Positions 3,190 through 64,000 of a DNA stretch of 64,000 bases are shown here, one piece after another (the first letter of the stretch is position 1; each line of letters starts with the position of its first letter). The stretch spans positions 1 to 64,000 of IMG/VR virus record IMGVR_UViG_3300020464_000002; one strand, written 5' to 3'. The notes under the pieces were generated by a model. That model saw only the letters and a list, made by a program, of their open reading frames with translations. It had not been told where the DNA came from and did no database searches. Source of the stretch: a virus. The position numbers and the translations under genes were made by a program.

Positions 3190-3264
3190 TGGAACACCCC
3201 TAAAAGCCCCGCCTAATAACTTGTCAAAATAGCCTTATCACTCATTCATTGATAAGGCTTTTTT
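3190..3264 (+). promoter_or_regulatory. late-promoter unit A (box, -10, hairpin)
   Basis: Box TGGAACACCCCTAAAAG 3190-3206. TGn plus CAAAAT 3225-3230. IR GCCTTATC/GATAAGGC 3232-3239/3251-3258, then T6. ATG 3265. Confidence 0.6.
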
Positions 3265-8210: not shown

Positions 8211-8287
8211 CGGAACACCCCTAAACAGCACCCCTTAAAACTTGTCAGAATAACCGTATCTTATTAATTATTCATAGGTACGGCGAA
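8211..8287 (+). promoter_or_regulatory. late-promoter unit B
   Basis: Box CGGAACACCCCTAAAC 8211-8226. TGn plus CAGAAT 8246-8251. IR CCGTATCT/AGGTACGG 8254-8261/8276-8283 (one G-T pair). ATG 8288. Shares AACTTGTCA with units A and J. Confidence 0.6.
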
Positions 8288-14088: not shown

Positions 14089-14274
14089 ATGGTGGAACAC
14101 GGCAAAATGAGCTTGCCCGAAGCCCTTAAAATAGGATTGTCTTTTATAAAGCTGTATCGAGACTCACCAAGTTTTGAGCGCGTATCAAAAACCATTGAAA
14201 ACGAGCGTATTTACAAGTCAGGCGTTATAGATCGTTTAAACGCAATCATACAGGTAAGCCAAGCGCGGCGTTAA
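14089..14274 (+). CDS. small hypothetical protein
   Basis: In-frame ATG 14089 lies just after the upstream stop at 14075. The track ORF 13990-14274 would overlap by 86 nt. Confidence 0.35.
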   Translation: MVEHGKMSLPEALKIGLSFIKLYRDSPSFERVSKTIENERIYKSGVIDRLNAIIQVSQARR

Positions 14275-18349: not shown

Positions 18350-18426
18350 TGGAACAGTGTAAAAGTTGCTAGCCGTTTACTTGTCATAATTGGTTATTGC
18401 TTTTTATAACCAATCGGACAGCATTT
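18350..18426 (+). promoter_or_regulatory. late-promoter unit J
   Basis: Box TGGAACAGTGTAAAAG 18350-18365. TGn plus CATAAT 18385-18390. IR ATTGGTTAT/ATAACCAAT 18389-18397/18406-18414. ATG 18427. Confidence 0.6.
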
Positions 18427-27862: not shown

Positions 27863-28384
27863 TCATCGGTTAGCCTCCGTATTAAGTCTTAATAGACAGT
27901 CACATATATTTTCACCCTCTAGCATTGAGAGATAATCCGTAGCGATAATTTTTCTAAATTCATGAATATTATTTTCAATAATACCGCTGGTATTGGCGGG
28001 GTTATTCTCAGAATAAGCGCGGGTATAAATAACCTCATTAGACATCGATATATCTAGTACCTCTATAATTACCTTATGATTAAATCGATCTAACCAGCGC
28101 TGGCCAATACTAAAGCCGCTAGCGTCATATTCCTCTTGTTTTTTGGCGTAGTGGACGTTTAATATCCAATCGTTTGCGTCATCGTGACTGATAAAACCGT
28201 GTCGCTGATCCGACTCATTAGTAATGCGATTAGCCCAACGAACGCTTAAACCATTTTTTTTGTCCACATAGACCGTGTAGAAGTGAGTAGGTGACATAGC
28301 AACGTTGCCTTGTTGCCAGTTAAGCGGGGTTAGTTTGTCTGCGTTATCGATGGTTGATCCTTGTTTGCTTGTGTTATTGCTCAT
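27863..28384 (-). CDS. hypothetical protein (visibly AT-rich orphan)
   Basis: 173-aa ORF with no recognisable motif. Composition looks lower in GC than its neighbours. Confidence 0.45.
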   Translation of the reverse strand: MSNNTSKQGSTIDNADKLTPLNWQQGNVAMSPTHFYTVYVDKKNGLSVRWANRITNESDQRHGFISHDDANDWILNVHYAKKQEEYDASGFSIGQRWLDRFNHKVIIEVLDISMSNEVIYTRAYSENNPANTSGIIENNIHEFRKIIATDYLSMLEGENICDCLLRLNTEANR

Positions 28385-28445
28385 ACTTAAAACCTTTTAA
28401 TTGCTGGCCGTCATCGAGCGTGACGGCTCCTTAAAATTTGATTAA

Positions 28446-29375
28446 TCAGGCTGGCTTGAATAATGCCTCGCCTACATAAGCATCTATAGCCGCTAGATTG
28501 AGATTTTTAGGGCTGGTTATGTTTAGCACGTCTTCCGATAAATCACTTCTTACTACCAGTTGCCTATTGCCGACAAATCGATCAATCTTGTACTTACGTC
28601 CTTTGTCATAGTTTTTATTGCCCTTGGTGCACTCCAATTCAGTGCCAGTAAGCACCGTTTGAAATTCTTTTAATAGGTAAGGATCACTAATATCCTCACT
28701 GATTAGGTAGAAAAAGTAACCGCGACCTGACTTAGTGGCAGCCAAGTCTTTTATTTTTTTACCTTTTTCTTTACCGAACGTCATTACCGTTGGTATGCGT
28801 GTCATTTCGCTAAACTCATAAAGCGACTGCATATCGGTTATACCAGCTTCACGGCAAAATATGCGTAGAAGACGAACACAAAATCTCACGTCATGCGCCG
28901 CACTATGGGCGTTTTGTGCGTGCTGTCTTGCATAGTCATAGTCAAAACGGTACAACAGCGCCGCTAACTTATGATCTGCATCAGGGTAAAGGTGACGTGC
29001 TATTGCTAGCGTGCATATTGACTTGTATTTGCTGGTATCAACGCCTGAATTACGTGCAACTTGCAAATCATAGTCAATGTTATGGCCAATGATATAAGCC
29101 GCGCCGTATGGCATGTGATCTAGTAATACCTTTTCGTGGCTTTCTGCCGCCTCTAAGTCCTCGGGGCATATACCAGTAACCGCCATTGCGCCATAACTGA
29201 TATCACGATCAGGGCGGCAACTCTTGGCGTATGCGTCCGTTGTGGGGTTCAAGATACCCTTATTGCTAAAAGCAATCGAGCAATAACCAATTTGAGTTGC
29301 TTGCGCGTCAGGGCTTGCGTCAGTGGCCTCAAAATCAATAGCCATGGCTGGCAAGTTTGAGTTTGATTGCATCAT
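28446..29375 (-). CDS. DEDDh 3'-5' exonuclease, ExoX-like
   Basis: Exo motifs IDFEATD, IIGHNIDYD and HSAAHDVRF. C-terminal MTFGKEKGKKIKDL...YLL resembles the DUF3820-type tail of ExoX. Confidence 0.65.
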   Translation of the reverse strand: MMQSNSNLPAMAIDFEATDASPDAQATQIGYCSIAFSNKGILNPTTDAYAKSCRPDRDISYGAMAVTGICPEDLEAAESHEKVLLDHMPYGAAYIIGHNIDYDLQVARNSGVDTSKYKSICTLAIARHLYPDADHKLAALLYRFDYDYARQHAQNAHSAAHDVRFCVRLLRIFCREAGITDMQSLYEFSEMTRIPTVMTFGKEKGKKIKDLAATKSGRGYFFYLISEDISDPYLLKEFQTVLTGTELECTKGNKNYDKGRKYKIDRFVGNRQLVVRSDLSEDVLNITSPKNLNLAAIDAYVGEALFKPA

Positions 29376-29390
29376 AAAATTCCTCTCTAT

Positions 29391-29702
29391 TTAGTTGGCA
29401 AGCTGACTGCCAGCGGTTAACTTGATACTACCGCATGAGTCGGTGGCAACGTACTGATTACCCGCGATAGGGTGGCCATTGGTACTGATCGTGATCTCGA
29501 TACTGTCACCATCAATCACTAGGTCTTTTAACGGCACACCCACGACCAATTCCAGCAAGTCTTCTGCGCTCATTGCGCCGAGCGCTTGCGGATCAACGAG
29601 CGTACTTTTAACAGTCTTTCTCGATTTTCTTGCTGACAAAAAGGAAGTCGCCGCAATGATGGTTGCTATGGCTGTGATCAGCGCTAAAAAACTGGTATTC
29701 AT
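29391..29702 (-). CDS. small membrane-anchored protein
   Basis: 103-aa ORF with an N-terminal hydrophobic helix FLALITAIATIIAATSFL. Confidence 0.45.
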   Translation of the reverse strand: MNTSFLALITAIATIIAATSFLSARKSRKTVKSTLVDPQALGAMSAEDLLELVVGVPLKDLVIDGDSIEITISTNGHPIAGNQYVATDSCGSIKLTAGSQLAN

Positions 29703-29754
29703 TATTTAATATCCTTATGCTTAATAAGGCGGCCAAGCGACCGCCTATTTTGGC

Positions 29755-30816
29755 TTACGCCATTTCTTGTTGATTGTTATAGACGTTGTATTGACCACCA
29801 TCATCAGCGATCACCTCTGCATAATCATTCGGATCAACCGATTGTGTGTTTTGCTGCTGAGCATAACTTGCTTGCTCGTCTTTTATCACTTGCGCGTCTA
29901 TTGTTGCCTTTAGTTTGTTTTGATAGTAATCAAAACGACCCGCTGGTATAAGCCTTACGTCAGGTATAGCCTTTTTGATATTGGCAACAGAATTGGGATC
30001 GGTAACGCAAGCAATCATCTTGGTTAAAATATCGACCTGCTCGTCATCGATATATTGAATTTGCGGCTCAGGTTGCGGCTGCTCGCTTGGCTCCTGCTGC
30101 GGGGTTACATCCCGCGCTTGCGTAAAGTCCTCAACCTCGTCTTTAGTGTAAATCCCCATCATGACTTCGGGCGCGTAAAGCCGACCAAAAAAAGCGGCGG
30201 CGCGATACTTCGCCATTTGCTCAGGCATAGTTGGCCATTTGCTGCCCCGCTTAAAGTACCAACCCTCTTTGATAGCTAGCTCCAAGGTAATAGGTGACGA
30301 CTCAACCCTATTACCAGTCTCCTTGTCGATCGCCCACGCCACGCAAGAGAAATCGTTAACATTGGTCGTTTTGGTAAAATATTTCTTGTTTCTGCCATAG
30401 CCGCTAGTCTCTTGGTATTCGATATTGCGATTGCCAAGATCGGTAAATTCAAAATTTAACGTGCCAAACCGAACGCAAGAGTTAATACCCGCAATGATGA
30501 ATGTCGAAGACCAAGCGGGTCGCCCCTCTATGAGATAAAGGTTTTGCATAATCATTAGGGGATCTGCGCCCATGCGATTAGACATATTGAGTGCGACCAA
30601 GCAGTTAGCGACCGCGTTGGGGTTGTTTATGTGTTCCTCTCTATAAGTGTCACCCCAGCCTGATTTTTTCACTATCACAGCGCGGTATGCTTCGGGGACG
30701 ATGTTAGAATTGGCTAGCATGTGGGCGGCCTTAACCACCTCGTTGAAGTTGCTAAAATTAAAAAGCCCAGTGCCAGCGGCTTGCGTTTGGTTGTTGGTTG
30801 TCGTTAACTCACTCAT
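29755..30816 (-). CDS. recT: RecT-family single-strand annealing recombinase
   Basis: Pattern LIEGRPAWSS, WPTMPEQMAKYRAAAFFGRLYAPEVMMG, typical of RecT/Bet-like proteins. Confidence 0.6.
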   Translation of the reverse strand: MSELTTTNNQTQAAGTGLFNFSNFNEVVKAAHMLANSNIVPEAYRAVIVKKSGWGDTYREEHINNPNAVANCLVALNMSNRMGADPLMIMQNLYLIEGRPAWSSTFIIAGINSCVRFGTLNFEFTDLGNRNIEYQETSGYGRNKKYFTKTTNVNDFSCVAWAIDKETGNRVESSPITLELAIKEGWYFKRGSKWPTMPEQMAKYRAAAFFGRLYAPEVMMGIYTKDEVEDFTQARDVTPQQEPSEQPQPEPQIQYIDDEQVDILTKMIACVTDPNSVANIKKAIPDVRLIPAGRFDYYQNKLKATIDAQVIKDEQASYAQQQNTQSVDPNDYAEVIADDGGQYNVYNNQQEMA

Positions 30817-30817
30817 T

Positions 30818-31309
30818 TTATTTATACCCCGCTATCTCACCGTTAAATATCTTGTCCAACTGATCGTCAGTTGGATTAATAAAGATCGTCGCTGGCTGGC
30901 TGTTGCGTTGCCCTTGTGCCAGCCTGATTAGATAGCCTTTATCGACCCCCTTTTTTGCTCGGGCTGGCTTGTCTGCCATGGCTTCAAAATGAGACTTAAT
31001 AGAAGACACGCGTTTTTGCATGACAATAGGGTCAGTTTCACGAATAAATTTAAACGTATCACCCTTGGCGCTTATCAATGATTGAAACTTAGCGGCAATA
31101 GCTTTTTTGTAGCTTGGCTTTAAATGTACTCGCAACCACATACAGTTAACAAACTTAAGGGCGCTATCACCGACATTGCCGTCTTGATCAGCTACGCACG
31201 CATACATAGATGGGTTGCAATTTTTATCGTAAATCATGACTTGACCAGCAAAGCTACCGTCAAAATAACGGCGCACCGTGGTCGTGTTTATCATTGCGCG
31301 TACTTTCAC
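30818..31309 (-). CDS. hypothetical protein
   Basis: 163-aa ORF tightly packed in the leftward operon. Confidence 0.45.
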   Translation of the reverse strand: MKVRAMINTTTVRRYFDGSFAGQVMIYDKNCNPSMYACVADQDGNVGDSALKFVNCMWLRVHLKPSYKKAIAAKFQSLISAKGDTFKFIRETDPIVMQKRVSSIKSHFEAMADKPARAKKGVDKGYLIRLAQGQRNSQPATIFINPTDDQLDKIFNGEIAGYK

Positions 31310-31680
31310 TTGTCACCCCCTAGGCCTAATAGGTAGTCAATTCTTTCATGTGCTTGTTGCATTGCACGCTTAGCCTTTTCAACGCCAAGCGTTAAACGAT
31401 CCAAGTCTAATTCTTCTAACTTTTGCTCCAAGCTGGCAACCTCACCTTCTAAATCCTCTATCTCGGATAGCAAGTCTTCTCTGCTTTTGTCGTCTATTCT
31501 TTTTAAGTCATCAGCACTAAAAAATAAGCCTTTGTTGTTGCCGCTTCGGTAAATAATCCCCAGCTTATCCACTTGATAGGCTAGCTGATAAGCTAGCGTG
31601 TCATCAGGGTTATCAAGTAGTGCATCAACCAACTCAGCATCATTCATTATGCTAATAGGGCGCAGTAATAGATCACTCAT
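31306..31680 (-). CDS. acidic coiled-coil protein
   Basis: 124-aa ORF with an E/D/L-rich heptad-like segment. Overlaps its neighbours by 4 nt. Confidence 0.45.
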   Translation of the reverse strand: MSDLLLRPISIMNDAELVDALLDNPDDTLAYQLAYQVDKLGIIYRSGNNKGLFFSADDLKRIDDKSREDLLSEIEDLEGEVASLEQKLEELDLDRLTLGVEKAKRAMQQAHERIDYLLGLGGDK

Positions 31681-32180
31681 TGAACACCCCCAGTAGAAGC
31701 GTATCGCTTCATTTCTGCCAGCTTTTCGTTAGCGTACTGATTTTGCTTTCTAAACTCGATGAGAGCGGGGCTTTCAAGATCGGTTCGAGCATTTATGGTT
31801 GATGTGGCTATGTCTTTTTCAGCTTGGCTCATCACATAGCTATTGCACCCAGTCACATTGCCAACCGTTGCGATGATCGCGCCAACGGTCAAACCAACGG
31901 CAACGTGCCGAATATATGATTTAAACTGGCTTGCCTTGGCTGGCGTGTCAGTATCGATAAACTGATCATCGGTATCACCTGCCAGCAACTTAGCTGGCGA
32001 ATAACCCATTTCACGTAAACCATCCCAGCCTATATAGCGGATATACGATCCAGTTTCGGCATCGGTTATGTCTGCATACTGGTCTTCCAAGTGAATGTTT
32101 AAGCGCTCATTGCGTCCAAACTTATAAACAGCTGGCGTGTAGCGCTCAGCTTTATTGATTAGCGTTAGAATCTGTGTCAT
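31677..32180 (-). CDS. hypothetical single-pass membrane protein
   Basis: 167-aa ORF with the hydrophobic segment VAVGLTVGAIIATVGNV. Confidence 0.45.
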   Translation of the reverse strand: MTQILTLINKAERYTPAVYKFGRNERLNIHLEDQYADITDAETGSYIRYIGWDGLREMGYSPAKLLAGDTDDQFIDTDTPAKASQFKSYIRHVAVGLTVGAIIATVGNVTGCNSYVMSQAEKDIATSTINARTDLESPALIEFRKQNQYANEKLAEMKRYASTGGVQ

Positions 32181-32253
32181 AATATTTTTTCCGTTGAAAG
32201 TGTTTGACCCCTTTTTTGATTCCAGTCAAAAAAGGGTTTTTTATTGTCTAAAT

Positions 32254-32550
32254 TTAGCTGTGGTGATCGATACACGCTTGCTTAGTATCAAAAACCAACT
32301 CAGCCCCTTTTAACCCCAAGTCATCATTCATTCGCGCTGCGTGCCTGACAAAAGCGTTTTCATGGCCTTTCATCAGCATGTGACCAGCACATTGCTTGCG
32401 ATCTCTTAATGTACCGCCAGTTGTTTTGTGACAGATAAATGAATCAGCGTTTAAAATCTCAGTCATGCGATCTTCACCAAGCCAGCCTTCTAGCGTGTCT
32501 TTTCTAAAAGGACAGTCTTTACAGGGTGTTTTAACTCTAGGTATTTTCAC
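32254..32550 (-). CDS. Cys-rich small protein (DUF6283-like?)
   Basis: 98-aa ORF with a CKDCPFRKD motif and further Cys/His residues. Confidence 0.4.
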   Translation of the reverse strand: MKIPRVKTPCKDCPFRKDTLEGWLGEDRMTEILNADSFICHKTTGGTLRDRKQCAGHMLMKGHENAFVRHAARMNDDLGLKGAELVFDTKQACIDHHS

Positions 32551-32939
32551 TTTTCACCCTCGTTCATTTGCTTTTCGGCCATTGCCGCCATGTCTTTATC
32601 AGATAAAGACTTGCCTTGTTTTTTTGGCTCATTGACTGGCGGGTTAGCTGGTTGCTTGCTAATTTGCTCGCAAAAGTCCATTGCAAGATCAAGCACCATT
32701 TCTGCTATGTCTACCTTAAAGACACCTGACTGCCCCTTTTTCTTATCCGTAACCTGAATGATCAGCCCTAGACCTTCACCCTCAACAGGCATTTCCTTGC
32801 TTACTTCAACTTCTACATGATCTGCTTTGGCTGAAAAAAAACCTTGAGCTAAAAGAAAACCAGTATCAGGCTTGATCGCTTCAACCGTTGTGGTTAAAAC
32901 AGCTATATCGTTTTTAACAGTTACTTTTTTACCAAACAT
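32547..32939 (-). CDS. hypothetical protein, first gene of the leftward early operon
   Basis: 130-aa ORF. The SD region CTTTCAACGGAGAAAAT is shared with gene 31677-32180. Confidence 0.45.
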   Translation of the reverse strand: MFGKKVTVKNDIAVLTTTVEAIKPDTGFLLAQGFFSAKADHVEVEVSKEMPVEGEGLGLIIQVTDKKKGQSGVFKVDIAEMVLDLAMDFCEQISKQPANPPVNEPKKQGKSLSDKDMAAMAEKQMNEGEK

Positions 32940-33048
32940 AAATTTTCTCCGTTGAAAGCCAAAATGGTTTTTTTTGACTTTGTTGTTGCGATTGCAAAAG
33001 AGTTGTTTTTTTAAATAATTTCGGCTGATTCGTCACCATCCGATAGTG

Positions 33049-33106
33049 ATAAGTTTACTAAACGAAACCAAACAAAGCAAGTATAAGTTGCCAAAAAGAA
33101 ACTTAT
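33049..33106. promoter_or_regulatory. candidate left operator region (OL)
   Basis: The 8-mer AAACTTAT or its complement ATAAGTTT occurs at 33049-33056 (-), 33083-33089 (-, 7/8) and 33099-33106 (+). The same 8-mer recurs in the cI-cro intergenic region. Confidence 0.35.
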
Positions 33107-33120
33107 TTTGATCAGGCAAT

Positions 33121-33143
33121 AAAAAACCCGCACAACGGCGGGC
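33121..33143 (-). terminator. terminator after the repressor gene
   Basis: On the - strand: GCCCGC cgttgt GCGGG followed by T6. Confidence 0.5.
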
Positions 33144-33170
33144 TTTACAGCGGTTTACTTTTTTAAATTA

Positions 33171-33869
33171 TTACCATCTTTCCATGTTTGACCATTCCCA
33201 CACCCAGCCTAGTATCTCTATATCATCCATTTGCTCAGGGGGGACTATTTCATCTTCGTACTCAGGATTATGGCTTCTTATAAGCAATCCGCCATCAGGT
33301 CGCCAGTATAAATACTTGGTACGCCTCATAACCCCATGTCTGAAACAATATATCTTACCGTCTTTGATCTCTTTTTTGCTAGCATCTGCGGTGCATCTAG
33401 CGCCGTCCGATATTCGATCGGACATACTGTCACCATCGTTTATATAGCTAAAAGATTGTGTGATGCTTGCACCTGCTTTACGAGCAGATCTTTTGCTCAT
33501 GCGTATTTTTTTATCAGTCATTTCTTGTATTTCGCCCTCTTTGTTACCCGCTGTAACTAATACTTTATCGTAGTGACTGATTTCAAATTCGTCGTCATCT
33601 AATGGGGTGCTGTCATCCCAGCCTAAGACCTCAGAAGTATCATCGCTTGTAGAAGTTTCTTTTTCTTTTTCTATACCAGTCAGCAACCATTCTGAGTCTA
33701 CATCTAAAAATTTAGCAAGTGCTATTAAGTAACTTCCTTTGGGCGTGTTTGTGCCTGACAGCCATTTAGATACCGTGCCCTTGCTGGCTCCCGTAACCCT
33801 AACAATATCCGCTTGCTTGCTATCGCTTGCTGCCAATCTACTTTGAATCCTATCTGCTACCGTCTGCAT
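33171..33869 (-). CDS. cI: CI-like repressor (XRE HTH plus S24 LexA-type autopeptidase)
   Basis: N-terminal HTH QADIVRVTGASKGTVSKWLSG. C-terminal GDSM serine motif and a downstream Lys region. Divergent from the cro-like gene. Confidence 0.8.
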   Translation of the reverse strand: MQTVADRIQSRLAASDSKQADIVRVTGASKGTVSKWLSGTNTPKGSYLIALAKFLDVDSEWLLTGIEKEKETSTSDDTSEVLGWDDSTPLDDDEFEISHYDKVLVTAGNKEGEIQEMTDKKIRMSKRSARKAGASITQSFSYINDGDSMSDRISDGARCTADASKKEIKDGKIYCFRHGVMRRTKYLYWRPDGGLLIRSHNPEYEDEIVPPEQMDDIEILGWVWEWSNMERW

Positions 33870-50741: not shown

Positions 50742-50817
50742 TGGAACACGTCTAATCATGCCAGCTGGCACGCGGTAAAATTATCCATACTCATTAATTG
50801 AATAGCGAATAATAATT
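50742..50817 (+). promoter_or_regulatory. late-promoter unit E
   Basis: TGGAACACGTCTAAT 50742-50756. TAAAAT 50776-50781. No clear IR. ATG 50818. Confidence 0.5.
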
Positions 50818-55279: not shown

Positions 55280-55378
55280 TGGAACACCCCTAAAACGCCC
55301 ATTTGAAACGCTATTAACATTAATCCTATCAGTTTAGATGTTCTATCACTATCCAACCGACCATATAGGATTAACCCC
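55280..55378 (+). promoter_or_regulatory. late-promoter unit F (capsid gene)
   Basis: TGGAACACCCCTAAAACG 55280-55297. TAACAT 55315-55320. IR AATCCTAT/ATAGGATT 55322-55329/55365-55372. ATG 55379. Confidence 0.6.
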
Positions 55379-57193
55379 ATGGATAAGAAGCAAGCAGCAG
55401 TATTTGACGCAGCAGCACATAAAGAAGTACAGGCAGTACGCCGCCTGATGCGTTCTTTAGAAAACAAGGGCAATAGCAGCGATCAAGTCGCCGCGTTTGA
55501 CTCGATGCTGGCAAGCAACCCCCAAGGCCGTGAGGCAGCAATGAGCGAGCTACCCGAGTCGCTACAGCGTATCTTAAACAGTAAATACATGGCAGAAGAC
55601 AAGCAAGCCGTTTTTGATGGTTTAGAAGACGGTATTATTGAATTTAAACGCCGTAATGGTGGTGAAATGCCGTCAGAGTACGCGATTGCCGCCGCATTGA
55701 CCACAGCCGCCGCGCCGTTTGGTGGTGCTGAAAAATACGATAGCAACTCAGAGCCTACGTTTGATAGCCTATCACTAGGTCATCATGAAGCGTTGTCAGT
55801 CGTGCCAGCCGCAACTCAAGTCATTATCGCGTACGGTATCTCTAACTCACTACCACTGCTATCGATGTTACCTAACCCAATGGGTAGCAACGAATTGCCG
55901 ATCGTTTATGGTACAGCTGTTGCCGGCTTAGACATGGGCGTTATGCGCCGTGGTGAATTGATGGACGGCGACAAAGCGGGTATGCCATACCTAGAAAACC
56001 GTCATACATTGACCATGGAAAAGACCGCCGCTGGCACGTTCACGCTAGAATCTCATGTCGCTTATACCGCTGAAAAGCGCGGCGATAAAACTGTTAAATT
56101 TACCGTTGATAAAACCTCGTCACTTGCGCCGTTCTTAGGCGGCCGTGTTGTCGTTATGATCAAGGGCATTGAGATCGCCAACGACAAGCACCGTGATCAC
56201 CCGACTAAGGGTGGCCGTAGTGTTCTACAGCCGCTAGATCCAGTTGATATCGGTACAGATACTTATATCGTAACAACCGCTGTGGCTGATCTTGACACGT
56301 ACACTATCGAAGTGAATTTTGATACGACAAACGGCGTTGATCCTGAGCCTGATGACGTGAGCATTGAGCTTATCTTTGACTACGAGCGTAAAGACAGCAA
56401 CGGCAACAATATTTTGCGTGAACCATCGGTAGATATGGAGTTTTTACACCGTTCTATCTATGCAGCCCCTCATCGTTCGCGTTCTACCGCAACAATCGAT
56501 GCGATCACTCAGCTATCGAATGAGCTTGGTATCAACTGGTACGGAGCCGCGCAGACAATCGCTATGCAGCGTTACTACTTTGAGCAGACAGGCCGCTTAT
56601 TGCGCACCGCGTTTAATATGTGTCTATCGGATCAAAACCCAAAAACTGGCCGCGTGGTGACGTTTGACTTTAACAAGACTGGTGTGTCACCGACCAACCT
56701 AGCGGATGCGTTTTCTAACGTCAATATTACGTTAGGGCTGGCGCGTACTCGCTTGTCTCGCGCTATTAACACAGCGATTGCAGGTTACGATCTGTATGTA
56801 TCAGATCGCGGCGCGGCGTTCTTCTCAGGCATGGGCGGCCAAAACTACGAATCAACAGGCGTACCGTTTGGTGATCAGTATTCCGTCTACCGTATTGGCC
56901 GTCTTAAAAACAACGGTGCAAACGTCTATTACGTTCCATCAAGCATGGGCGTATTTGATGAAGAAACGGACACCACCACAGCACACGCATTGTTAGTGCC
57001 ACGCGCTATCACGCCAGCACAAGCGCCGTTTGTTGGCTTTACCGCAGTACCGCCAATGGTGCTAACGTCAAATGCCACCGCGTTTGAAAAAGACGTGGCG
57101 ATCTACAGCCGTATGGCTGGCGAGGTTAACCCGCTACCTCGTTATCGCAATCAGTGCATGTTGATTGAAATGATCAACTTGCCAGCGCTTTAA
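55379..57193 (+). CDS. putative major capsid protein (604 aa, possibly with a cleavable N-terminal domain)
   Basis: Has its own box promoter and is followed by a strong terminator. Size and position are capsid-like. No motif-level proof. Confidence 0.45.
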   Translation: MDKKQAAVFDAAAHKEVQAVRRLMRSLENKGNSSDQVAAFDSMLASNPQGREAAMSELPESLQRILNSKYMAEDKQAVFDGLEDGIIEFKRRNGGEMPSEYAIAAALTTAAAPFGGAEKYDSNSEPTFDSLSLGHHEALSVVPAATQVIIAYGISNSLPLLSMLPNPMGSNELPIVYGTAVAGLDMGVMRRGELMDGDKAGMPYLENRHTLTMEKTAAGTFTLESHVAYTAEKRGDKTVKFTVDKTSSLAPFLGGRVVVMIKGIEIANDKHRDHPTKGGRSVLQPLDPVDIGTDTYIVTTAVADLDTYTIEVNFDTTNGVDPEPDDVSIELIFDYERKDSNGNNILREPSVDMEFLHRSIYAAPHRSRSTATIDAITQLSNELGINWYGAAQTIAMQRYYFEQTGRLLRTAFNMCLSDQNPKTGRVVTFDFNKTGVSPTNLADAFSNVNITLGLARTRLSRAINTAIAGYDLYVSDRGAAFFSGMGGQNYESTGVPFGDQYSVYRIGRLKNNGANVYYVPSSMGVFDEETDTTTAHALLVPRAITPAQAPFVGFTAVPPMVLTSNATAFEKDVAIYSRMAGEVNPLPRYRNQCMLIEMINLPAL

Positions 57194-57220
57194 TCATCAA
57201 GCAAAGGCTTAGCCACTAAA

Positions 57221-57256
57221 AGCCTTGCTGTCATGAGTGGCAGCAGGGCTTTTTTT
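57221..57256 (+). terminator. strong intrinsic terminator after the capsid gene
   Basis: AGCCTTGCTG tcatgagtgg CAGCAGGGCT (one G-U pair) followed by T7. Competes with upstream hairpin 57204-57226. Confidence 0.75.
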
Positions 57257-57292
57257 AAATCTATTTTTAACCAATACCCAAGGATTACCGAT

Positions 57293-57988
57293 ATGACAGA
57301 CGTTAAGCAATTACCTGAAAATCTTGATCAACTAGAGCAGCTGACAGAGTTCAAACGCGTGTATAAAAAATACACCGCTGATCAGCTGGAAGATCTATTG
57401 ACCGAAGCTGAGGTGGATTACCTAAGCGCTGACAACAAGTCAGAGCTAACATGGCGCTTACTGGATCATCAGGGCTTTGATTTTGAAGCCGCGCTTGCCG
57501 AAGAAAACAGCGATCAATCAGCACCGCAAGATGAGCCAGTACCAGCGGATGATAAGAATGATGCCAATGAAGACGTACAGACGGTTCAAGATGATGCTGA
57601 TAGCGAGCAAGGCGATCAGATCGATAGCGAAGCAAACGCCGATCTTGGTTCAGGTGGTGAAAGCACTGACGACAGCGAAAAATCTAGTCAAATGGATAAC
57701 GTTACCAACGATTATGCGCCGTCAGATATTAGTAACGGCAATGACGCTAACGCAAACGAAGTTGAGCAACCAGCAGAAGCGGCAGATCAGCCAGTGAAAG
57801 AGAAAGATCATGTGGCCGTTTTTAATACTGGTGCGTGGCCTTTTTTCGAGACAGCGACCAGCACGCTAGTTCCCGCTAAGAAGACAACTAAGATCTATCC
57901 TACGGCCTCAGTCGATAAAGATCGGATTTTGCGTAATGTGGAGCAGTACAACCACACACGCGGTAATAAATTGCGCGTTATTAATTAA
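57293..57988 (+). CDS. highly acidic protein with a SAP/Rho-N-like N-terminal helix pair
   Basis: ATG 57293 after AAGGA. The track start 57233 overlaps the terminator. Long D/E/Q/N-rich central region. Confidence 0.5.
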   Translation: MTDVKQLPENLDQLEQLTEFKRVYKKYTADQLEDLLTEAEVDYLSADNKSELTWRLLDHQGFDFEAALAEENSDQSAPQDEPVPADDKNDANEDVQTVQDDADSEQGDQIDSEANADLGSGGESTDDSEKSSQMDNVTNDYAPSDISNGNDANANEVEQPAEAADQPVKEKDHVAVFNTGAWPFFETATSTLVPAKKTTKIYPTASVDKDRILRNVEQYNHTRGNKLRVIN

Positions 57989-58005
57989 GCGAGTGGTGAT
58001 TTATT

Positions 58006-58036
58006 GGCGGCCATGCTGACGTTGTGGCCGTCTTTT
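58006..58036 (+). terminator. intrinsic terminator
   Basis: GGCGGCCA tgctgacgttg TGGCCGTC followed by TTTT. Confidence 0.6.
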
Positions 58037-58059
58037 CTACCTAACACAAGGGATTTGCT

Positions 58060-59148
58060 ATGATCAACAGCAAAACACTAGGATCAGCCGCCGGTATTCA
58101 ATACCAAGGCGTGATCGACAACTCAGAGGGTACGAATCTACCATCACTGGCTAATGGCGTGGTCATTGGCAAGTTTAAGCGCGGGCGCATGGATAAGCCG
58201 TTTAAGGTGACTGCTAGCAACTACAAGGCATTGCTTGGCCGCGATCCATCTAACCCTAGCTACTTAGCCGTAGAGGACGCCTTTAAGCGCGGCGTTAGCG
58301 AGGTTAGTATTTTGCGCATTGGTGGCACTGGCGGCGCAGCAAAGCCCATCCCAGTTAACACAGGAACCGTTATTTTTAGCGTTGAGAGCTACGAGAACCC
58401 ATCTAGTGAATATCCAGTATATATTTATATTGAAAATCCAGTTGGCGACTGGACGCTAACCGAGGCGGGCGAGTTAATCGCTGATTCAACAGGGTTTGCC
58501 GCTGACGGCGTGGATTTGGATATCTATGACGGCGGCGCTGATATTCTCTTTACGGTTGTTACGCCCGACAAGCGATCTTTTGAGCTTGATGTAACCGCCG
58601 AATATGCCGATATTTCTTATGATGGACAGCATAACTTTCATAGCCCAAACAGCGATGTGGCTACCTTAGATCCGCTAGGCGAGGTTGTTATCAGTCAATT
58701 TTCGTCAAAGATACCTAGTTTTTCAACAGCATTTTTCAACACGCTTTTAACCGTGCCTGAACATATACCGCCTGAATTGGTCGATATCAGTTATTTATTT
58801 TTCGAAGCCTCGCGTTTTAACCAAAACATAAGTATGTGGGATGTAAGTCACGTACTCAATATGAATAGCACTTTTTATAACGCTAAGATTTTTAACCAAG
58901 ATCTATCTAATTGGTGTACGCCTAATCTACCGTTCGGTGGTGTAGATTTTGATACTGGCGCCGATGCGTGGTTATTGCCTAGACCAGTTTGGGGTACTTG
59001 TCCACGCAGAGAGGGCGGCGCGACTGATTATGTTTTTGATCCATTGCTACCAAGCCAGCCGCCGAGCACAGATAGCAGTTATATCCGCATAGCACCAGTA
59101 ACGCCGATAGACGGCTGGCATGATGCGTCAAATAACATGACAACATAA
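58060..59148 (+). CDS. anchor-domain paralogue 1 with C-terminal DUF285/BspA-type repeats
   Basis: Conserved 88-aa N-terminus shared with 60407 and 61656. C-terminal FNQNISMWDVSHVLNMNSTFYNAKIFNQDLSNW. Confidence 0.6.
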   Translation: MINSKTLGSAAGIQYQGVIDNSEGTNLPSLANGVVIGKFKRGRMDKPFKVTASNYKALLGRDPSNPSYLAVEDAFKRGVSEVSILRIGGTGGAAKPIPVNTGTVIFSVESYENPSSEYPVYIYIENPVGDWTLTEAGELIADSTGFAADGVDLDIYDGGADILFTVVTPDKRSFELDVTAEYADISYDGQHNFHSPNSDVATLDPLGEVVISQFSSKIPSFSTAFFNTLLTVPEHIPPELVDISYLFFEASRFNQNISMWDVSHVLNMNSTFYNAKIFNQDLSNWCTPNLPFGGVDFDTGADAWLLPRPVWGTCPRREGGATDYVFDPLLPSQPPSTDSSYIRIAPVTPIDGWHDASNNMTT

Positions 59149-59157
59149 GGGTGATTC

Positions 59158-60294
59158 ATGACTACTATAGCAGCTTGTTTAAAAGTAAAAATAAACAATC
59201 AGGAGGCAAAGCTAAATAGTTTTGTTGATCTAAATTTTAATAACTTGTCAGACATTAGCACTGAACAGCTAGCGGTCGTTAGATTGCTTAAAAACTATCT
59301 TGGTGGGTTTTTTAGATGGTCGCAACTATTGCCTGATAGAGAGCTTGGTATCATGGATGGTGTTGGCGGTATGGGTGGCGAGCCAGCAGATAAAAGCGGG
59401 TTTTACATAGGCACTATCAATATGCGCGAATATCCGTTCTCATTCGCCGCTTTCGATGAGCAGCAATTTAGATCAGCGATTAGTGAGGTTGAAGATGTAT
59501 TGAAACTCTTTAATTTTGACGAGCTTGTCAATGCCGCCAGCCTTGAGGATTTGCAGCAGTTGATCGATAATGAGATCAATAGTAGCAACCCAAAATATAC
59601 GGTTACGGCTCACACAGAGCCAGTCACCTTGCGTATATTGCGTTGCACACAGAGCGATATTAACTCTATCGCCGTAGACGGTGCGCCGCCTCATGTGGAT
59701 ATGTTCGATTCATTAGTGCAGATGCTACCGCACCACTCACCAACACTGGACAAGGCCGATTATGCGCCAGCTTATTATGACGCTGGATTTGATCAGATTA
59801 TTTTTAAATCTAAGTTTGGCTTGCATCAAAAGCTGGCGGGTTCTAATGATGACTTTGTTACTAGCGTTACAGTCAGTAAAGACCTGATTAATGACACTGT
59901 GACAAATTATCTTTTTTCATATCAGATTAACGATAGACCTATTGTTAGAGCTAGTTTTGACGGCAGTAGCTTTATGCCAACCTCGCTTGCGGACTATATC
60001 GTATGGCACATGCCTGATGATCATATATTCAAGTTTGATTTTGACCGACACCCTAGCGATAACGAGATTTTACAGCCGTTTTGGATCAACAACGAAAGCG
60101 ATGCTAACGGTAATTATGTTTTCTCAGGCTTAGACGGTACGGAGAATATACCCAATGTAACGCTATTTGAGCAGCAAAACACTCTTAAATTCTTATTAAC
60201 GCCTGATGCGACTAATGATAATGACTTAGTACGCATACTATTCGGTGGTGATATTGAAATCAGATCGTCTTTTGCCTCAAGTGGATCTCAATAA
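59158..60294 (+). CDS. companion protein 1 (paralogue of 60805-61527)
   Basis: 378-aa ORF. Shares TLRI.xC, VD(M/I)F and FDEL segments with companion 2. Confidence 0.5.
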   Translation: MTTIAACLKVKINNQEAKLNSFVDLNFNNLSDISTEQLAVVRLLKNYLGGFFRWSQLLPDRELGIMDGVGGMGGEPADKSGFYIGTINMREYPFSFAAFDEQQFRSAISEVEDVLKLFNFDELVNAASLEDLQQLIDNEINSSNPKYTVTAHTEPVTLRILRCTQSDINSIAVDGAPPHVDMFDSLVQMLPHHSPTLDKADYAPAYYDAGFDQIIFKSKFGLHQKLAGSNDDFVTSVTVSKDLINDTVTNYLFSYQINDRPIVRASFDGSSFMPTSLADYIVWHMPDDHIFKFDFDRHPSDNEILQPFWINNESDANGNYVFSGLDGTENIPNVTLFEQQNTLKFLLTPDATNDNDLVRILFGGDIEIRSSFASSGSQ

Positions 60295-60333
60295 TTTTTT
60301 TAAAGTTATCGTCAGGCATCCAAGCCTAGCCTT

Positions 60334-60406
60334 TGGAACACCCTAAAACCCTAACCTCGACAAAGCCTATACTGAGTCATAAACCACTCAGTATAGGCAT
60401 TTTATT
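60334..60406 (+). promoter_or_regulatory. late-promoter unit G
   Basis: TGGAACACCCTAAAAC 60334-60349. TATACT 60368-60373 lies inside IR GCCTATACTGAGT/ACTCAGTATAGGC 60365-60377/60386-60398, then ATTTTATT. ATG 60407. Confidence 0.6.
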
Positions 60407-60754
60407 ATGATCGAGAGTAAAACACTAGGTAGCGCCGCTGGCGTGCAGTATCAGGGCGTTATCGACAAGACAGAAACAAACAGCTTGCCGTCATTGGCCA
60501 ATGGCGTGGTCATTGGCAAGTTTAAGCGCGGCCGTATGGACAAGCCGTTTAAGGTGACTGCCGTCAATTATCAGGCATTGCTAGGGCGTGATCCGATGAA
60601 TCCAAGCTACTTAGCAGTAGAGGATGCCTTTAGGCGCGGTATTAGCGAGGTGAGCGTATTGCGCGTTGGCCAAACGGGCGGCGCGTCAGTTGTGGAGGTC
60701 GAAAAATACAGCTATCTTGATTTATCGCTACCCTTGCCGCCAGCCGTCGCTTAA
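60407..60754 (+). CDS. anchor-domain paralogue 2 (short, 115 aa; anchor module only)
   Basis: Same N-terminal module, then 25 unrelated residues and a stop. May be a truncated copy. Confidence 0.45.
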   Translation: MIESKTLGSAAGVQYQGVIDKTETNSLPSLANGVVIGKFKRGRMDKPFKVTAVNYQALLGRDPMNPSYLAVEDAFRRGISEVSVLRVGQTGGASVVEVEKYSYLDLSLPLPPAVA

Positions 60755-60804
60755 ACCTACCGCAATAATAAACATGAATTTTTAATAAATATAAGGATTT
60801 TCTT

Positions 60805-61527
60805 ATGGCTAACGAATGGTTTTATGCAGCATGTGCAAAAATGCAGGTTAATAACAGTGAGCCTTTCATACTATCTTTTGAAGATACTGCTTTTAGAGAT
60901 ATGGCTGAACAAATACCCAACGTAGATTTTAACGATTTATGTATTTTTGCTTTAATTTCGCCATTTTTCACCCCCAATGTAACAAATATGGATCAAAATT
61001 GGTCGGCACGCTTGCCGCGCTTAAATTTCACTGCCATTCCTGAAGATATGGTCATGTTAGGCCGGCAGGTTAATAGCCTATCTAACCCTTATCCCGAAAA
61101 CCGCACTGGTCTTGTTTGTTTTACTAAAGAATCGTTTAAGGCGCTCATGATGCAAGAGCCGCCCACTACGGACATGACGCCACAGGAGTGGCAAGACTTG
61201 GTAATTAGCACACCATTTGATGAGCTACAATCTCTACTAGAAACGTTTGGATCATCACCTTTCAAGATTAATGGTACGAGATCAACGCTCAGAATAATGC
61301 CATGTAGTCGAGAAGAAATAAAGAGCCTTGATCCGTACGGCGGGCTTGATGCGCCGCGTGTAGATATTTTTAACCTTGTTAAAGAGCGTTTAACCAATAC
61401 GGTTAAACAGCTTGACGATAAGGGTTTAGAGCCAGCCAAATACTATGCAGGCGGCAATTATATCGAGTTTGTTGCGGAGTGTTCGATAAGTATTTCTGAG
61501 ACTATGCCTACTAACCCACAGTTATGA
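60805..61527 (+). CDS. companion protein 2
   Basis: 240-aa ORF, paralogous to 59158-60294. Confidence 0.5.
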   Translation: MANEWFYAACAKMQVNNSEPFILSFEDTAFRDMAEQIPNVDFNDLCIFALISPFFTPNVTNMDQNWSARLPRLNFTAIPEDMVMLGRQVNSLSNPYPENRTGLVCFTKESFKALMMQEPPTTDMTPQEWQDLVISTPFDELQSLLETFGSSPFKINGTRSTLRIMPCSREEIKSLDPYGGLDAPRVDIFNLVKERLTNTVKQLDDKGLEPAKYYAGGNYIEFVAECSISISETMPTNPQL

Positions 61528-61582
61528 TAAGGATTAGCTTGACAGGTGAGTAGCTGGTGTCGAGCGAACCCGATTCAAGCTA

Positions 61583-61655
61583 TGGAACACTGCTAAAGCC
61601 ACAAGCCAAGCCAAGCCTATACTGAGCTATTACTACTCAGTATAGGCTTTTTATT
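61583..61655 (+). promoter_or_regulatory. late-promoter unit H
   Basis: TGGAACACTGCTAAAG 61583-61598. TATACT 61618-61623 lies inside IR GCCTATACTGAG/CTCAGTATAGGC 61615-61626/61636-61647, then a T-run. ATG 61656. Confidence 0.6.
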
Positions 61656-62468
61656 ATGATCAACAGCAAAACACTAGGATCGGCCGCCGGTATTCAATAC
61701 CAAGGCGTTATCGATAAGACAGAAACAAACAGCTTACCGTTATTGGCCAATGGTGTGATCATTGGCCGGTTTAAGCGTGGGCGTATGGATAAACCATTTA
61801 AAGTGACTGCTAATAACTACCAATCGTTGCTAGGCCGCGATCCGTCTAATCCTAGCTACTTAGCGGTTGAGGACGCGTTTAAGCGTGGTATCAGCGAGGT
61901 TAGTATTTTGCGCGTTGGCGGGCGGGCAGCTGGCGATGGTTTAGGCGATGGTTTAGGCGATGGAGGATTGGGCGGCGGCAGTGGTTGGAGTGATATTGAT
62001 TTCGTTGGATCGGTGGGCGGTATGTCGATTGGGTACGAGATGGGTTATCTTTATATATTTCAATACCAAATTAATGATGAAACGCCGGTTATTGTAGAAG
62101 TACCCGCCAACCGGACTGAATTGGTGGGTACTAACCTTGGGATGCTTGTCGTTGACTTCACCCCCAATGTTTTTAAAGATTCAGCAAGCGGTGATCCGTA
62201 TGAGTATTGGATGGAATGGGAGGTTCAAGAAAACTCTAATTGGATTACTCTAAAAGGTCTAAGATCCGGATATACCGCGCCGCAAATGGATTCAATGCTG
62301 GAAAATAATATACTTAGAATAACAGAGGTTTCGGAAGAGGAGCGCTACTCTATATCCATTAACAATCCTAATCTAACAACCTATGATATAGGGCTAAATA
62401 ATAACACTGCTGAAATGGGTGTGAGGTCAGAAATTAGGGTTGTAGCGCCGGATCTAGGTGCTGTGTAA
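61656..62468 (+). CDS. anchor-domain paralogue 3 with GDGLG linker and an unrelated C-terminal domain
   Basis: Same N-terminal module, then GDGLGDGLGDGGLGGGSG, then a domain of about 170 aa. Confidence 0.55.
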   Translation: MINSKTLGSAAGIQYQGVIDKTETNSLPLLANGVIIGRFKRGRMDKPFKVTANNYQSLLGRDPSNPSYLAVEDAFKRGISEVSILRVGGRAAGDGLGDGLGDGGLGGGSGWSDIDFVGSVGGMSIGYEMGYLYIFQYQINDETPVIVEVPANRTELVGTNLGMLVVDFTPNVFKDSASGDPYEYWMEWEVQENSNWITLKGLRSGYTAPQMDSMLENNILRITEVSEEERYSISINNPNLTTYDIGLNNNTAEMGVRSEIRVVAPDLGAV

Positions 62469-62477
62469 ATAAGGCAT

Positions 62478-62551
62478 TGGAACACCCCTAAAGGCCTAAA
62501 GCAAACCTTGCCTATACTGAGTTGATACCAACACAGTATAGGCATTTTATT
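62478..62551 (+). promoter_or_regulatory. late-promoter unit I
   Basis: TGGAACACCCCTAAAG 62478-62493. TATACT 62513-62518 lies inside IR GCCTATACTG/CAGTATAGGC 62510-62519/62534-62543, then ATTTTATT. ATG 62552. Confidence 0.6.
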
Positions 62552-63940
62552 ATGAGCGCTCAGATCCTTTATTTAAGTATTCTAGCGTCTTCCATGGCAC
62601 TGACGGAATCGCCCGATCCCGCAGCGCTGGCAAGCGTAGAGCTTGTCACGGAATACGCTTTTGATTCAAACGTTGTGGCAAAAGTCATGGTGGTTGATCA
62701 AAAAACCTTTACCACTGCCGCCGACCCCTTAAACAACCTTGTTTTTAAGATCAGCTTTAACGACAAGATCGATGGCAGTACGCTAACAGAATTACAAGGC
62801 CGTTTATACACTGGCGGCGGCGTTGAGGCGCTAGAAGAAAACCATGCCGATGACTTTAGTTACGTCACAGGTAAGCTAGACTTTCACGGCGCATTAGATA
62901 GCCAGTATGACTTTTTCGAGTCCGTCACGACCAGTTATAGCGCAAGCAGTGCAGCAGCGATCAAAACAGCGCTTGAAACCGTGGGCGCATTAAACGAGCT
63001 TGGCGCTTATCGCACCAAACAAGTTGAATTGGCCGTACCAGCTAGCACCGTAACCGACCTGACACCAAAAGAGCTTAAAAACGCGTTGTTAGACATGCGC
63101 GATCGTCCACGCTACCTAGTCACTTGTGACGTGGCCAGCTTACCCCATATTGAAGCGCTGGCAGAGGTGATGGGTAAGATCAACTGTCACGTATTGCTTG
63201 ATATTGGCAATATCACCGACTGGCAATCAGCCGTAGCGTTAACTGAGACATTGAGCATTAACGATCACCGTTTTTGGGTGTTTTGGAACCCTAATAAGTC
63301 ACGTCCAAGCAATGCAACAACCGTGCTGGCGCGTAAAAAATGGCGACCGTGTGTTGGTGATTACCTCGCTCAATTATTGTTGCGCAACGCGGCCACCAAT
63401 GCCGCTGGCATCCCGCCAATCTATCGACCAATCGCAGGTTACGACTTCCCAGTGGCGTTCCGCGATATGGAAAAAATAGGCGGTTTAACGCTGGATGAAG
63501 AAGCACAAAACGCGCTTGCCAGTGCTGGCGTGAACGTGGTTATTAATGAGCGTTTTGAGGGCGGCGATCGCTGGATCTATGGCGATGCGTTGACCCAGTA
63601 TGACAGCAAGACCAGCGCCTTGCGCCTGATCAACTCATCCGAGATTGAGACTTATACCGCCAATGTTGTGATCGGCATTGCTAAAAAGCACTTGCTAAAA
63701 GGTATGAGTAGTTATGTCAAAGATGCGACCAATGAGTGTGAGCGCTTTTTGGATTCATGCGTTGTTGATGATAGTGGTAAGGGCTTGTTGGTGCAGTCGT
63801 CAGAGCTTGGCGGTCGTTATTATGCGCTAAGTATTACGCCACGCGCTGACGATCCATTCAGTAAAGTAGATATCAAGTTTAGCCGCCGTCCGCAAGGTTG
63901 TGCACGCCAAGCATTTTTAGAAACCACAGTAACGAAGTAA
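62552..63940 (+). CDS. contractile tail sheath protein
   Basis: C-terminal pattern ALASAGVNVVINERFEGGDRWIYGDALTQ ... RYYALSITPRADDPFSKVDIKF resembles the sheath C-terminal domain. ATG 62552 fits the box spacing. The track start 62522 lies inside the hairpin. Confidence 0.55.
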   Translation: MSAQILYLSILASSMALTESPDPAALASVELVTEYAFDSNVVAKVMVVDQKTFTTAADPLNNLVFKISFNDKIDGSTLTELQGRLYTGGGVEALEENHADDFSYVTGKLDFHGALDSQYDFFESVTTSYSASSAAAIKTALETVGALNELGAYRTKQVELAVPASTVTDLTPKELKNALLDMRDRPRYLVTCDVASLPHIEALAEVMGKINCHVLLDIGNITDWQSAVALTETLSINDHRFWVFWNPNKSRPSNATTVLARKKWRPCVGDYLAQLLLRNAATNAAGIPPIYRPIAGYDFPVAFRDMEKIGGLTLDEEAQNALASAGVNVVINERFEGGDRWIYGDALTQYDSKTSALRLINSSEIETYTANVVIGIAKKHLLKGMSSYVKDATNECERFLDSCVVDDSGKGLLVQSSELGGRYYALSITPRADDPFSKVDIKFSRRPQGCARQAFLETTVTK

Positions 63941-64000
63941 TAACCCCACTGATCGCTATCACGCCAGCGTTAGCGATCAGCACCAACCACAGTGTAAATA

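Follow-up and report, generated by a model that had tools for sequence, protein, structure and literature searches.

A putative two-chain tail sheath with three small-subunit isoforms encoded by a Psychrobacter myovirus or prophage

We examined a window of 64,000 nucleotides (nt), positions 1 to 64,000 of the IMG/VR virus record IMGVR_UViG_3300020464_000002, in which three plus-strand open reading frames (ORFs) at 58060, 60407 and 61656 (copies 1, 2 and 3) precede a tail sheath gene and share an N-terminal module of 88 amino acids (aa). It constitutes the N-terminal part of a contractile tail-sheath protein: the handshake arm and the first segment of the core. Since it belongs to the sheath protomer and the adjacent sheath gene lacks it, we read the three module proteins as alternative small subunits of a split sheath. 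On balance we favour a Psychrobacter myovirus or prophage with a two-chain sheath, in which all three isoforms most likely pair with the one large subunit and display their C-terminal domains.

Residues 1–88 of the three copies are 84–87% identical, which at the DNA level appears as a 288-nt direct repeat in three copies, and no relatedness was found beyond them. Both the common module and the complete divergence of the C-termini had been described in an initial annotation made from the sequence alone. Copy 1 (58060–59148, 362 aa, putative small sheath subunit isoform 1) consists of the module (58060–58323) and a DUF285/BspA-type C-terminal domain, which matches Pfam family DUF285 (PF03382) at residues 241–288 (E = 2.6e-14, 53.4 bits, gathering cut-off 25). 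The DUF285 assignment of the initial annotation therefore stands, but Pfam recognises a single stretch, which does not demonstrate the repeats it reported. Two relatives, P0011 and P0048, carry the NCBI name "BspA family leucine-rich repeat surface protein". Copy 2 (60407–60754, 115 aa, isoform 2) has a 27-aa tail after its module (60407–60670) and is colinear with the N-terminal third of the natural fusion proteins P0016, P0017 and P0034. In the translation of copy 3 (61656–62468, 270 aa, isoform 3) the module (61656–61919) is followed by a Gly/Asp-rich linker, GDGLGDGLGDGGLGGGSG, and an unrelated beta-rich domain, as had been noted; the same domain is present on a companion protein, C1 (BLASTP, E = 4e-5), described below.

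All three copies matched the PHROG tail sheath family phrog_1036 at profile positions 6–91 with E-values of about 1e-9 (copy 1, E = 2.5e-9), and all three gave a weak match to Pfam Gp18_domIII_N. The sheath body matched the same phrog_1036 profile at positions 105–531 only (E = 6e-60). It thus lacks the N-terminal ~100 residues of the sheath profile, and the module is the missing piece. A profile built from 26 modules and searched against 177,635 PDB sequences retrieved only two matches, both of them sheath N-termini: residues 7–67 of phage P1 gp22 (E = 0.012) and residues 6–88 of the Halogeometricum borinquense sheath (E = 0.14). Short structural matches of the module to the sheaths of T4, pyocin and contractile injection systems were also obtained. 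The loose resemblance to a sheath N-terminal arm that the initial annotation had mentioned in passing is therefore real, and its preferred interpretation of the module as a virion-anchoring add-on gives way to that of an N-terminal part of the protomer itself. Display on the head, which it had also considered, found no support.

The large sheath subunit (62552–63940, plus strand, 462 aa) is a sheath body that lacks the N-terminal arm as well as the first segment of the core. It is colinear with residues ~100–544 of the single-chain relative P0174 (544 aa), and P0174, P0298 (557 aa) and P0232 (657 aa) are each colinear with module plus body. Copy 3 and the body are read in different frames as two ORFs, and the 83 nt that separate them contain a box and a hairpin. 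Fusion of the two by read-through, frameshift or bypass was ruled out by the different frames, and also by the conservation of the intervening box and hairpin and by the free-standing modules of 91–100 aa in minimal relatives. Three single-chain relatives (P0232, P0310 and P0313) have an insertion of ~110 aa exactly at the module/body junction. This insertion (residues ~99–203) matches positions 88–192 of the 493 positions of Pfam DUF3383 (E = 2e-11), which connects that family of unknown function with sheath surface insertions.

Joint folding of the small and large chains is proposed from these natural fusions and from an AlphaFold2 prediction for an artificial fusion of copy 2 and the body, for which the alignment included the natural fusions. 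The model had a mean predicted local distance difference test score (pLDDT) of 83.8 and a predicted template modelling score (pTM) of 0.82, with values above 90 for module residues 30–90. Residues 1–25 (the arm) and the junction were disordered, as would be expected of an inter-subunit arm and a linker in such a model. In a fold search of the PDB, 45 of the 45 significant matches were contractile sheaths. The best was P1 gp22 (E = 3e-19, template modelling score 0.59–0.65, ~580–608 aligned columns), which was matched over essentially its full length at about 14–16% sequence identity in the structural alignment. The start of the body is beta-rich in the model, with strands at residues 119–199 in the position of domain III. 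In P1 gp22, residues 3–34 form the handshake N-terminus, domain II comprises residues 35–99 and 243–425, and domain III (residues 100–242) projects beyond the sheath (PMC10304247). By homology, the module is equivalent to gp22 residues 3–99, that is, the arm and the first part of domain II. The break between the two chains coincides with the gp22 domain II/III boundary, the point at which the chain departs from the conserved core in an outward direction.

The split is conserved well beyond the window. Homologues of the body (n = 108), from Psychrobacter, Faucicola, Moraxella and Acinetobacter, are nearly all 456–462 aa long and lack the module. A module profile search of 1.84 billion representatives recovered about 300 module clusters (50% identity), in which the module almost always occupies residues 1–89 of proteins of 91–1,106 aa; it was fused to a body in only two of ~200 sequences examined. 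In two distant metagenomic lineages a module gene of 98–100 aa abuts or overlaps the start of a 434–444-aa body gene, whose product matches the body hidden Markov model (HMM) at E = 1e-126 to 1e-138. A megablast search of a phage collection with positions 57000–64000 returned no match, and tblastn of the same collection with two different module sequences returned only Acinetobacter phage vB_AbaM_ABMM1, the only isolate there with a split sheath. ABMM1 is a myovirus with a contractile tail as seen by transmission electron microscopy. Its body, gp11 (Gp12 in the paper), has 431 aa, and its free-standing module, gp13 (Gp14), has 92 aa; each bears the annotation "tail sheath protein". Unlike the window, ABMM1 has one module copy, without a C-terminal extension, which lies downstream of the body after one intervening gene. 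In the searched parts of the text of the ABMM1 paper the split is not discussed and the two "tail sheath proteins" pass without comment.

The number and length of the module proteins vary from phage to phage. We compared 13 related Psychrobacter loci over the interval from the acidic gene 3′ of the capsid gene to the sheath body, and found one to four module genes per locus and at least one in every complete related locus. Single module proteins of 91, 287 and 120 aa are encoded in L006, L009 and L002, respectively, two each in L016 (117 and 303 aa), L004 (397 and 127 aa) and L013 (92 and 614 aa), and four in L005 (408, 821, 415 and 120 aa), next to the three of the window (362, 115 and 270 aa). 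All seven loci with a module protein of at least 300 aa also encode one of at most 135 aa, which fits a combination of short "filler" and bulky display subunits. The long fusions carry DUF285, PKD, immunoglobulin (Ig) and Laminin_G_3 domains; surface adhesion is a typical setting for Ig, PKD and lectin domains. Cassette content thus differs among related phages, both in copy number (one to four) and in protein length (91 to more than 1,100 aa), and the varied C-termini bear out the exchangeable distal domains proposed in the initial annotation.

The same hot spot holds proteins with another N-terminal module in a distant Psychrobacter lineage (L010, 4521–5881; L011, 5404–9915; L012, 5272–9930). 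These proteins, of 164, 269 and 1,211–1,262 aa, begin with a fibre-like module (..SKHEDV.ELA.RIGKDIGS.D.LTT.DK.S.V.AINE..). The 269-aa protein and proteins of 286–288 aa from these loci share a DUF285-type C-terminus (..PVWGTCPRGE) with copy 1 of the window; those of 286–288 aa start with MKKLVSHDEMVKF and not with the fibre-like module. Judged from the sequences, this looks like a second anchor-plus-variable-domain system at the same site. Accessory genes are inserted around the capsid-sheath-tube block of other relatives: in ABMM1 (L001, 8083–10487) the module and tube genes have antirepressor genes and a toxin-antitoxin pair of the RelE type between them, L021 (88–1956) has a GmrSD-type nuclease, and in L023 (3414–4328) and L024 an AbiJ/Abi_C gene lies just upstream of the capsid gene.

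The three module sequences of the window are mosaics. As the initial annotation had it, copies 2 and 3 alone have AAGACAGAAACAAACAGCTT (at 60467 and 61716), and copies 1 and 2 alone have GGCGTGGTCATTGGCAAGTTTAAGCGCGG (at 58156 and 60503). Informative sites fall into blocks in which copies 1 and 3 agree (nt 1–48), then copies 2 and 3 (nt 54–93) and then copies 1 and 2 (nt 99–147), and a runs test of the site pattern gave as few runs in 0 of 20,000 permutations. The mosaicism is consistent with gene conversion, as had been suggested, or with recombination. Among the three copies the synonymous divergence (dS) is 0.8–1.2 and the ratio of nonsynonymous to synonymous divergence (dN/dS) is 0.075–0.10. 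A recent duplication as the source of the module similarity is therefore rejected by the dS of 0.8–1.2. On these rates the copies are best described as old paralogues that were kept by selection and not recently homogenised.

A comparison of the window with L016 (7776–9897) gave dS values of 0.72–0.93 for the modules of positional orthologues and 0.24–0.25 for the body and capsid genes on either side. The array therefore differs from its flanks in recombination history, and it has presumably been exchanged or evolved on another schedule than the remaining structural operon. Each internal cassette is bounded by repeats of a ~75-nt leader and the 264-nt module. These would be an obvious substrate for cassette gain, loss and exchange, and cassettes appear to have been gained, lost and reshuffled by recombination between them.

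The leader is a unit present before copy 2, copy 3 and the sheath body, and runs from a box (TGGAACAC..CTAAA) at about −73 through a 13–14-bp hairpin (GCCTATACTGAG/CTCAGTATAGGC) and (A/T)TTTTATTATG to the ATG. The hairpins have folding free energies of about −21 to −22 kcal/mol (z −5 to −7). All three units are on the plus strand: at 60334–60406 before copy 2 (box TGGAACACCCTAAAA at 60334–60348, hairpin at 60365–60398, ATTTTATT before the ATG), at 61583–61655 before copy 3 (box TGGAACACTGCTAAA at 61583–61597, hairpin at 61615–61647, TTTTTATT before the ATG) and at 62478–62551 before the sheath body (box TGGAACACCCCTAAA at 62478–62492, hairpin at 62510–62543, again ATTTTATT before the ATG). That these three genes share box and hairpin had been recognised from the start; what changes is the start of the sheath gene, whose true start is the ATG at 62552, immediately 3′ of the conserved leader, the TTG at 62522 lying inside the hairpin. 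Copy 1 has neither box nor leader hairpin. It has its own Shine-Dalgarno sequence, AAGGGA, and is preceded by a terminator-like hairpin at 58006–58036 (plus strand; GGCGGCCA...TGGCCGTC followed by TTTT), downstream of the gene for an acidic 251-aa protein. The same arrangement of terminator-like hairpin and Shine-Dalgarno sequence precedes the first module gene in all related loci.

In the Psychrobacter loci L002–L006, L009, L010, L013 and L016 the leader unit also stands at −73 before the body gene, and the body gene of L008 has a variant box, GGAACAG, at −74. Most non-first module copies carry the unit; the box is absent at the second copy of L013 and at the internal copies of L010. Across the related loci L002–L016 the hairpin stem is conserved and the loop varies. 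Because the sole Shine-Dalgarno-like AGG, 11–13 nt from the ATG, is buried in the 3′ arm of the stem, the hairpin leader may be an element of translational control, 5′ stabilisation or antitermination type. Only sheath-related genes have the hairpin leader; the capsid gene carries the same box but no hairpin. Allowing 0–1 mismatch, the plus strand of the window contains eight matches to the box TGGAACACCCCTAAA, as compared with 1.3 expected. The further sites, at 3190–3204, 8211–8225, 14093–14107, 50742–50756 and 55280–55294, lie upstream of the tube gene at 3265, a 1,394-aa ORF at 8288, an ORF at 14290, a fibre gene at 50818 and the capsid gene at 55379, respectively. The box is probably the late promoter motif of this phage; it fits neither a sigma-70 nor, cleanly, a sigma-54 consensus.

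Copies 1 and 2 are each followed by a companion gene on the plus strand. Companion C1 (59158–60294, 378 aa) comprises an adaptor domain (~aa 1–230) and a beta-rich domain homologous to the C-terminus of copy 3, and companion C2 (60805–61527, 240 aa) comprises an adaptor domain. The two had been called paralogous, and we found 28% identity over the first ~230 aa of each. Matches to a companion-domain HMM (E = 2e-40 to 2e-34) showed that P0016 (349 aa), P0017 (351 aa) and P0034 (360 aa) carry this domain fused to the module. A short module protein followed by a companion aligns with these three proteins, the break falling just before a conserved AAC-K motif, and in several phages the short module ORF and the companion ORF overlap by 4 nt (ATGA). 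Copy 2 plus C2 is accordingly the split equivalent of the ~350-aa module-adaptor fusion of other phages. As the adaptor is fused to the module elsewhere and the end of C1 is homologous to copy 3, the companions belong to the same C-terminal repertoire; they do not form a separate system but are C-terminal parts split off once more. The companions had no matches in Pfam or PHROG, and a scan of viral contigs recovered no relatives of them.

The nearest formal parallel to this arrangement is the T6SS (type VI secretion system) sheath, built from TssB and TssC (VipA/VipB). The N-terminal strand of TssB forms the handshake; in the middle domain two further strands of TssB interlace with five of TssC, and the C-terminal end of TssB is in the outer layer (PMC5807055). 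The window, as known from its genes and the model, likewise has a small and a large chain encoded by adjacent genes, small first, and the break is at the equivalent place in the fold. Unlike TssB and TssC, the window proteins have no Pfam TssB/TssC match at E ≤ 0.1, and the sheath lacks a domain for ClpV recycling, whereas the T6SS outer domain 3 is recognised by ClpV. TssB is not known to be multiplied and joined to variable surface domains, as the small subunit of the window is, and the sheath of the window belongs to a virion instead of a cytoplasmic organelle. No T6SS components were seen among the scanned ORFs of the window, and the neighbourhood consists of phage capsid and tail genes. 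Because the relatives are phage sheaths of the P1 gp22/phrog_1036 type, the fission was probably independent of that in the T6SS.

P1 gp22 (PDB 8jaj, 8jan and 9ay3), the best structural match of the model and the only significant PDB sequence match of the module, has its elements arranged along the chain in the same way, from the arm through the first part of domain II, the outward domain III, the remainder of domain II and domain I to the C-terminal arm. It differs in being one 529-aa chain, whereas the chain of the window is cut at the II/III boundary and its first piece triplicated. The window proteins are members of the phage sheath superfamily in all but the single chain. The sheath core consists of N- and C-terminal parts with insertions between them, and in a review that covers 112 modelled sheaths the T6SS is the only system for which two-protein sheaths are mentioned (PMC9230969). 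Extracellular contractile injection systems (eCIS) resemble the window in having more than one sheath-related product per sheath (Afp2/3/4, Pvc2/3/4), with paralogues that differ in surface-exposed parts; those are full-length sheath paralogues, whereas the window repeats only the N-terminal ~90 residues and has one body gene. In T4 gp18 and Hoc-type display, too, variable exposed domains attach where the conserved core is interrupted, and Gp18_domIII_N covers the module, but the T4 insertions are covalent in a single chain and uniform per subunit, unlike the separately expressed alternative small chains of the window. We found no report of a split or two-gene phage sheath in the literature, in a search confined to open-access papers.

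In the mechanism we propose, each large subunit would pair with one small subunit to make up a heterodimeric sheath protomer. The outward and tube-facing domains would belong to the large subunit, together with the C-terminal arm and the second part of the core domain. The N-terminal beta-strand arm of the small subunit would interlock neighbouring protomers in the handshake, and its core strands would complete domain II, a TssB-like role. As the break is located where single-chain sheaths turn outward, C-terminal fusions to the small subunit should sit on the outer surface of the tail. The three isoforms would compete for the one large-subunit partner and so form a mosaic heteropolymeric sheath, in which the short isoform would act as filler and the long isoforms would show adhesin- or lectin-like domains. 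The outer surface would then carry the DUF285 domain, the domain of copy 3 and possibly, via copy 2, C2 and C1. Co-assembly of the three isoforms, outward display and an adhesive function are the predicted parts of this mechanism; what the data show is homology to sheaths, a conserved fission, purifying selection, mosaic modules, variable cassettes and common expression signals.

Several points weigh against it. The split sheath is read from genes, homology and a model and not from virion proteomics or structures, and the text of the ABMM1 paper does not state which sheath proteins were detected by liquid chromatography-tandem mass spectrometry. The model is an artificial fusion that was guided by the natural fusions in its alignment, and neither the body nor a body-dominated profile matched any PDB sequence. 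The outward orientation is suggested by homology to P1 gp22, T4 gp18 and TssB, and the entry of all three isoforms into one sheath is a step we infer. Copy 2 modelled together with C2 in AlphaFold gave a poor result (pLDDT 61): the copy 2 tail (90–118 in the model) stayed below 50 with no gain from C2, and a fold search with the model gave no significant match beyond the module itself. Finally, fusions of up to 1,106 aa are not plausible on every protomer.

This last point leads to the alternative that survives best, in which the split is real but one isoform, probably the short copy 2 or the body-proximal copy 3, is the stoichiometric partner, and the long ones are minor or position-specific, for example as a ring next to the baseplate or neck (like Afp4/Pvc4) or as attachment points for a few side fibres. 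We regard it as unlikely overall, though well ahead of the other alternatives. Fusions of up to 1,106 aa would crowd the lattice if every protomer carried one, long module proteins always occur together with a short one, and copy 1 is without the promoter and leader of copies 2 and 3 and the body; PVC and AFP sheaths, moreover, are made of several proteins (PMC10304247). Yet the lone 287-aa module protein of L009 indicates that a large subunit can do with an extended isoform alone, the promoter/leader units of copies 2 and 3 are identical, and the modules are equally constrained, with no isoform-specific changes seen in an analysis that was not in depth.

The extra module proteins could also be non-structural, either dominant-negative "sheath poisons" or decoys directed against related superinfecting phages, or assembly chaperones. 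We consider this highly improbable. Many relatives are prophages, and a module with a bulky domain could conceivably block the lattice of a competitor with the same split sheath, but it would poison the phage's own sheath as well. Copies 2 and 3 share the box of the capsid gene and the box and hairpin of the sheath gene, which argues for late and high expression and not for expression in the lysogen, and the fused domains have extracellular-type adhesion or lectin folds.

Slightly less credible still is the module as a generic anchor that docks adhesins or decorations on a complete head or tail, outside the sheath protomer. A conserved N-terminus with a variable C-terminus is indeed reminiscent of fibre and decoration anchors, and the genes lie between the capsid and sheath genes. 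Against such an anchor, the body lacks precisely the segment that the module supplies, natural single-chain fusions exist, and the free-standing 91–100-aa modules of minimal relatives have nothing to anchor. That copies 1 and 2 are decaying by-products of recombination, functionless partial duplications of the 5′ end of the sheath operon, is barely tenable: the region is a recombination hot spot of variable content with mosaic module sequences, but all ORFs are intact, dN/dS is 0.075–0.10 despite near-saturated synonymous divergence, positional orthologues are retained in the related phage L016, and the leaders are conserved.

Besides the sheath, the window encodes tube (3265–3885), baseplate (1087–2550), tail and fibre genes. 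The acidic protein between the capsid gene and the first module gene (57233–57988, 251 aa) is of very acidic, low-complexity composition and may be a scaffold or decoration protein; all relatives have a counterpart of 147–300 aa in the same place, with conserved ends, a highly variable middle and no family matches. Two giant ORFs, at 18397–25113 (2,238 aa) and 8288–12472 (1,394 aa), possibly encode ejection or tape-measure-type proteins, and residues 273–386 of the 1,394-aa product match phrog_1926 ("released from the phage upon host infection"). The one long block of ORFs on the minus strand (27863–33869), in which GC and AT skew are inverted, is probably the lysogeny/early-regulation module of a temperate, circularly permuted genome of ~65 kb. 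tRNA genes were looked for in the window and none was found.

The known sheaths of phages, pyocins and eCIS have single-chain protomers, and the two-chain TssB/TssC sheath is treated as a peculiarity of the T6SS (PMC9230969). An independently split phage sheath would imply that the fold tolerates fission at the same point, and bears on the origin of TssB/TssC. It would explain the PHROG "unknown function" families 14345, 5283 and 24956, as well as many "hypothetical" or "BspA family" proteins of Moraxellaceae prophages. Foreign domains might be displayed on a tail by fusing them to a piece of 90 residues, which could be useful for the engineering of phages and contractile injection systems. 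Tentatively, and with less confidence than for the phage of the window, we extend the favoured reading to a temperate myovirus lineage, represented by about 300 module clusters, that would have a two-chain sheath with the small chain as a plug-in display scaffold, co-polymerised isoforms and cassettes swapped between phages by way of the conserved leader and module repeats. If true, such a lineage would provide the first example of a split sheath in a virus as well as the first of a sheath with a combinatorially variable surface, and it suggests that the sheath, besides fibres and capsid, can be a variable adhesive surface.

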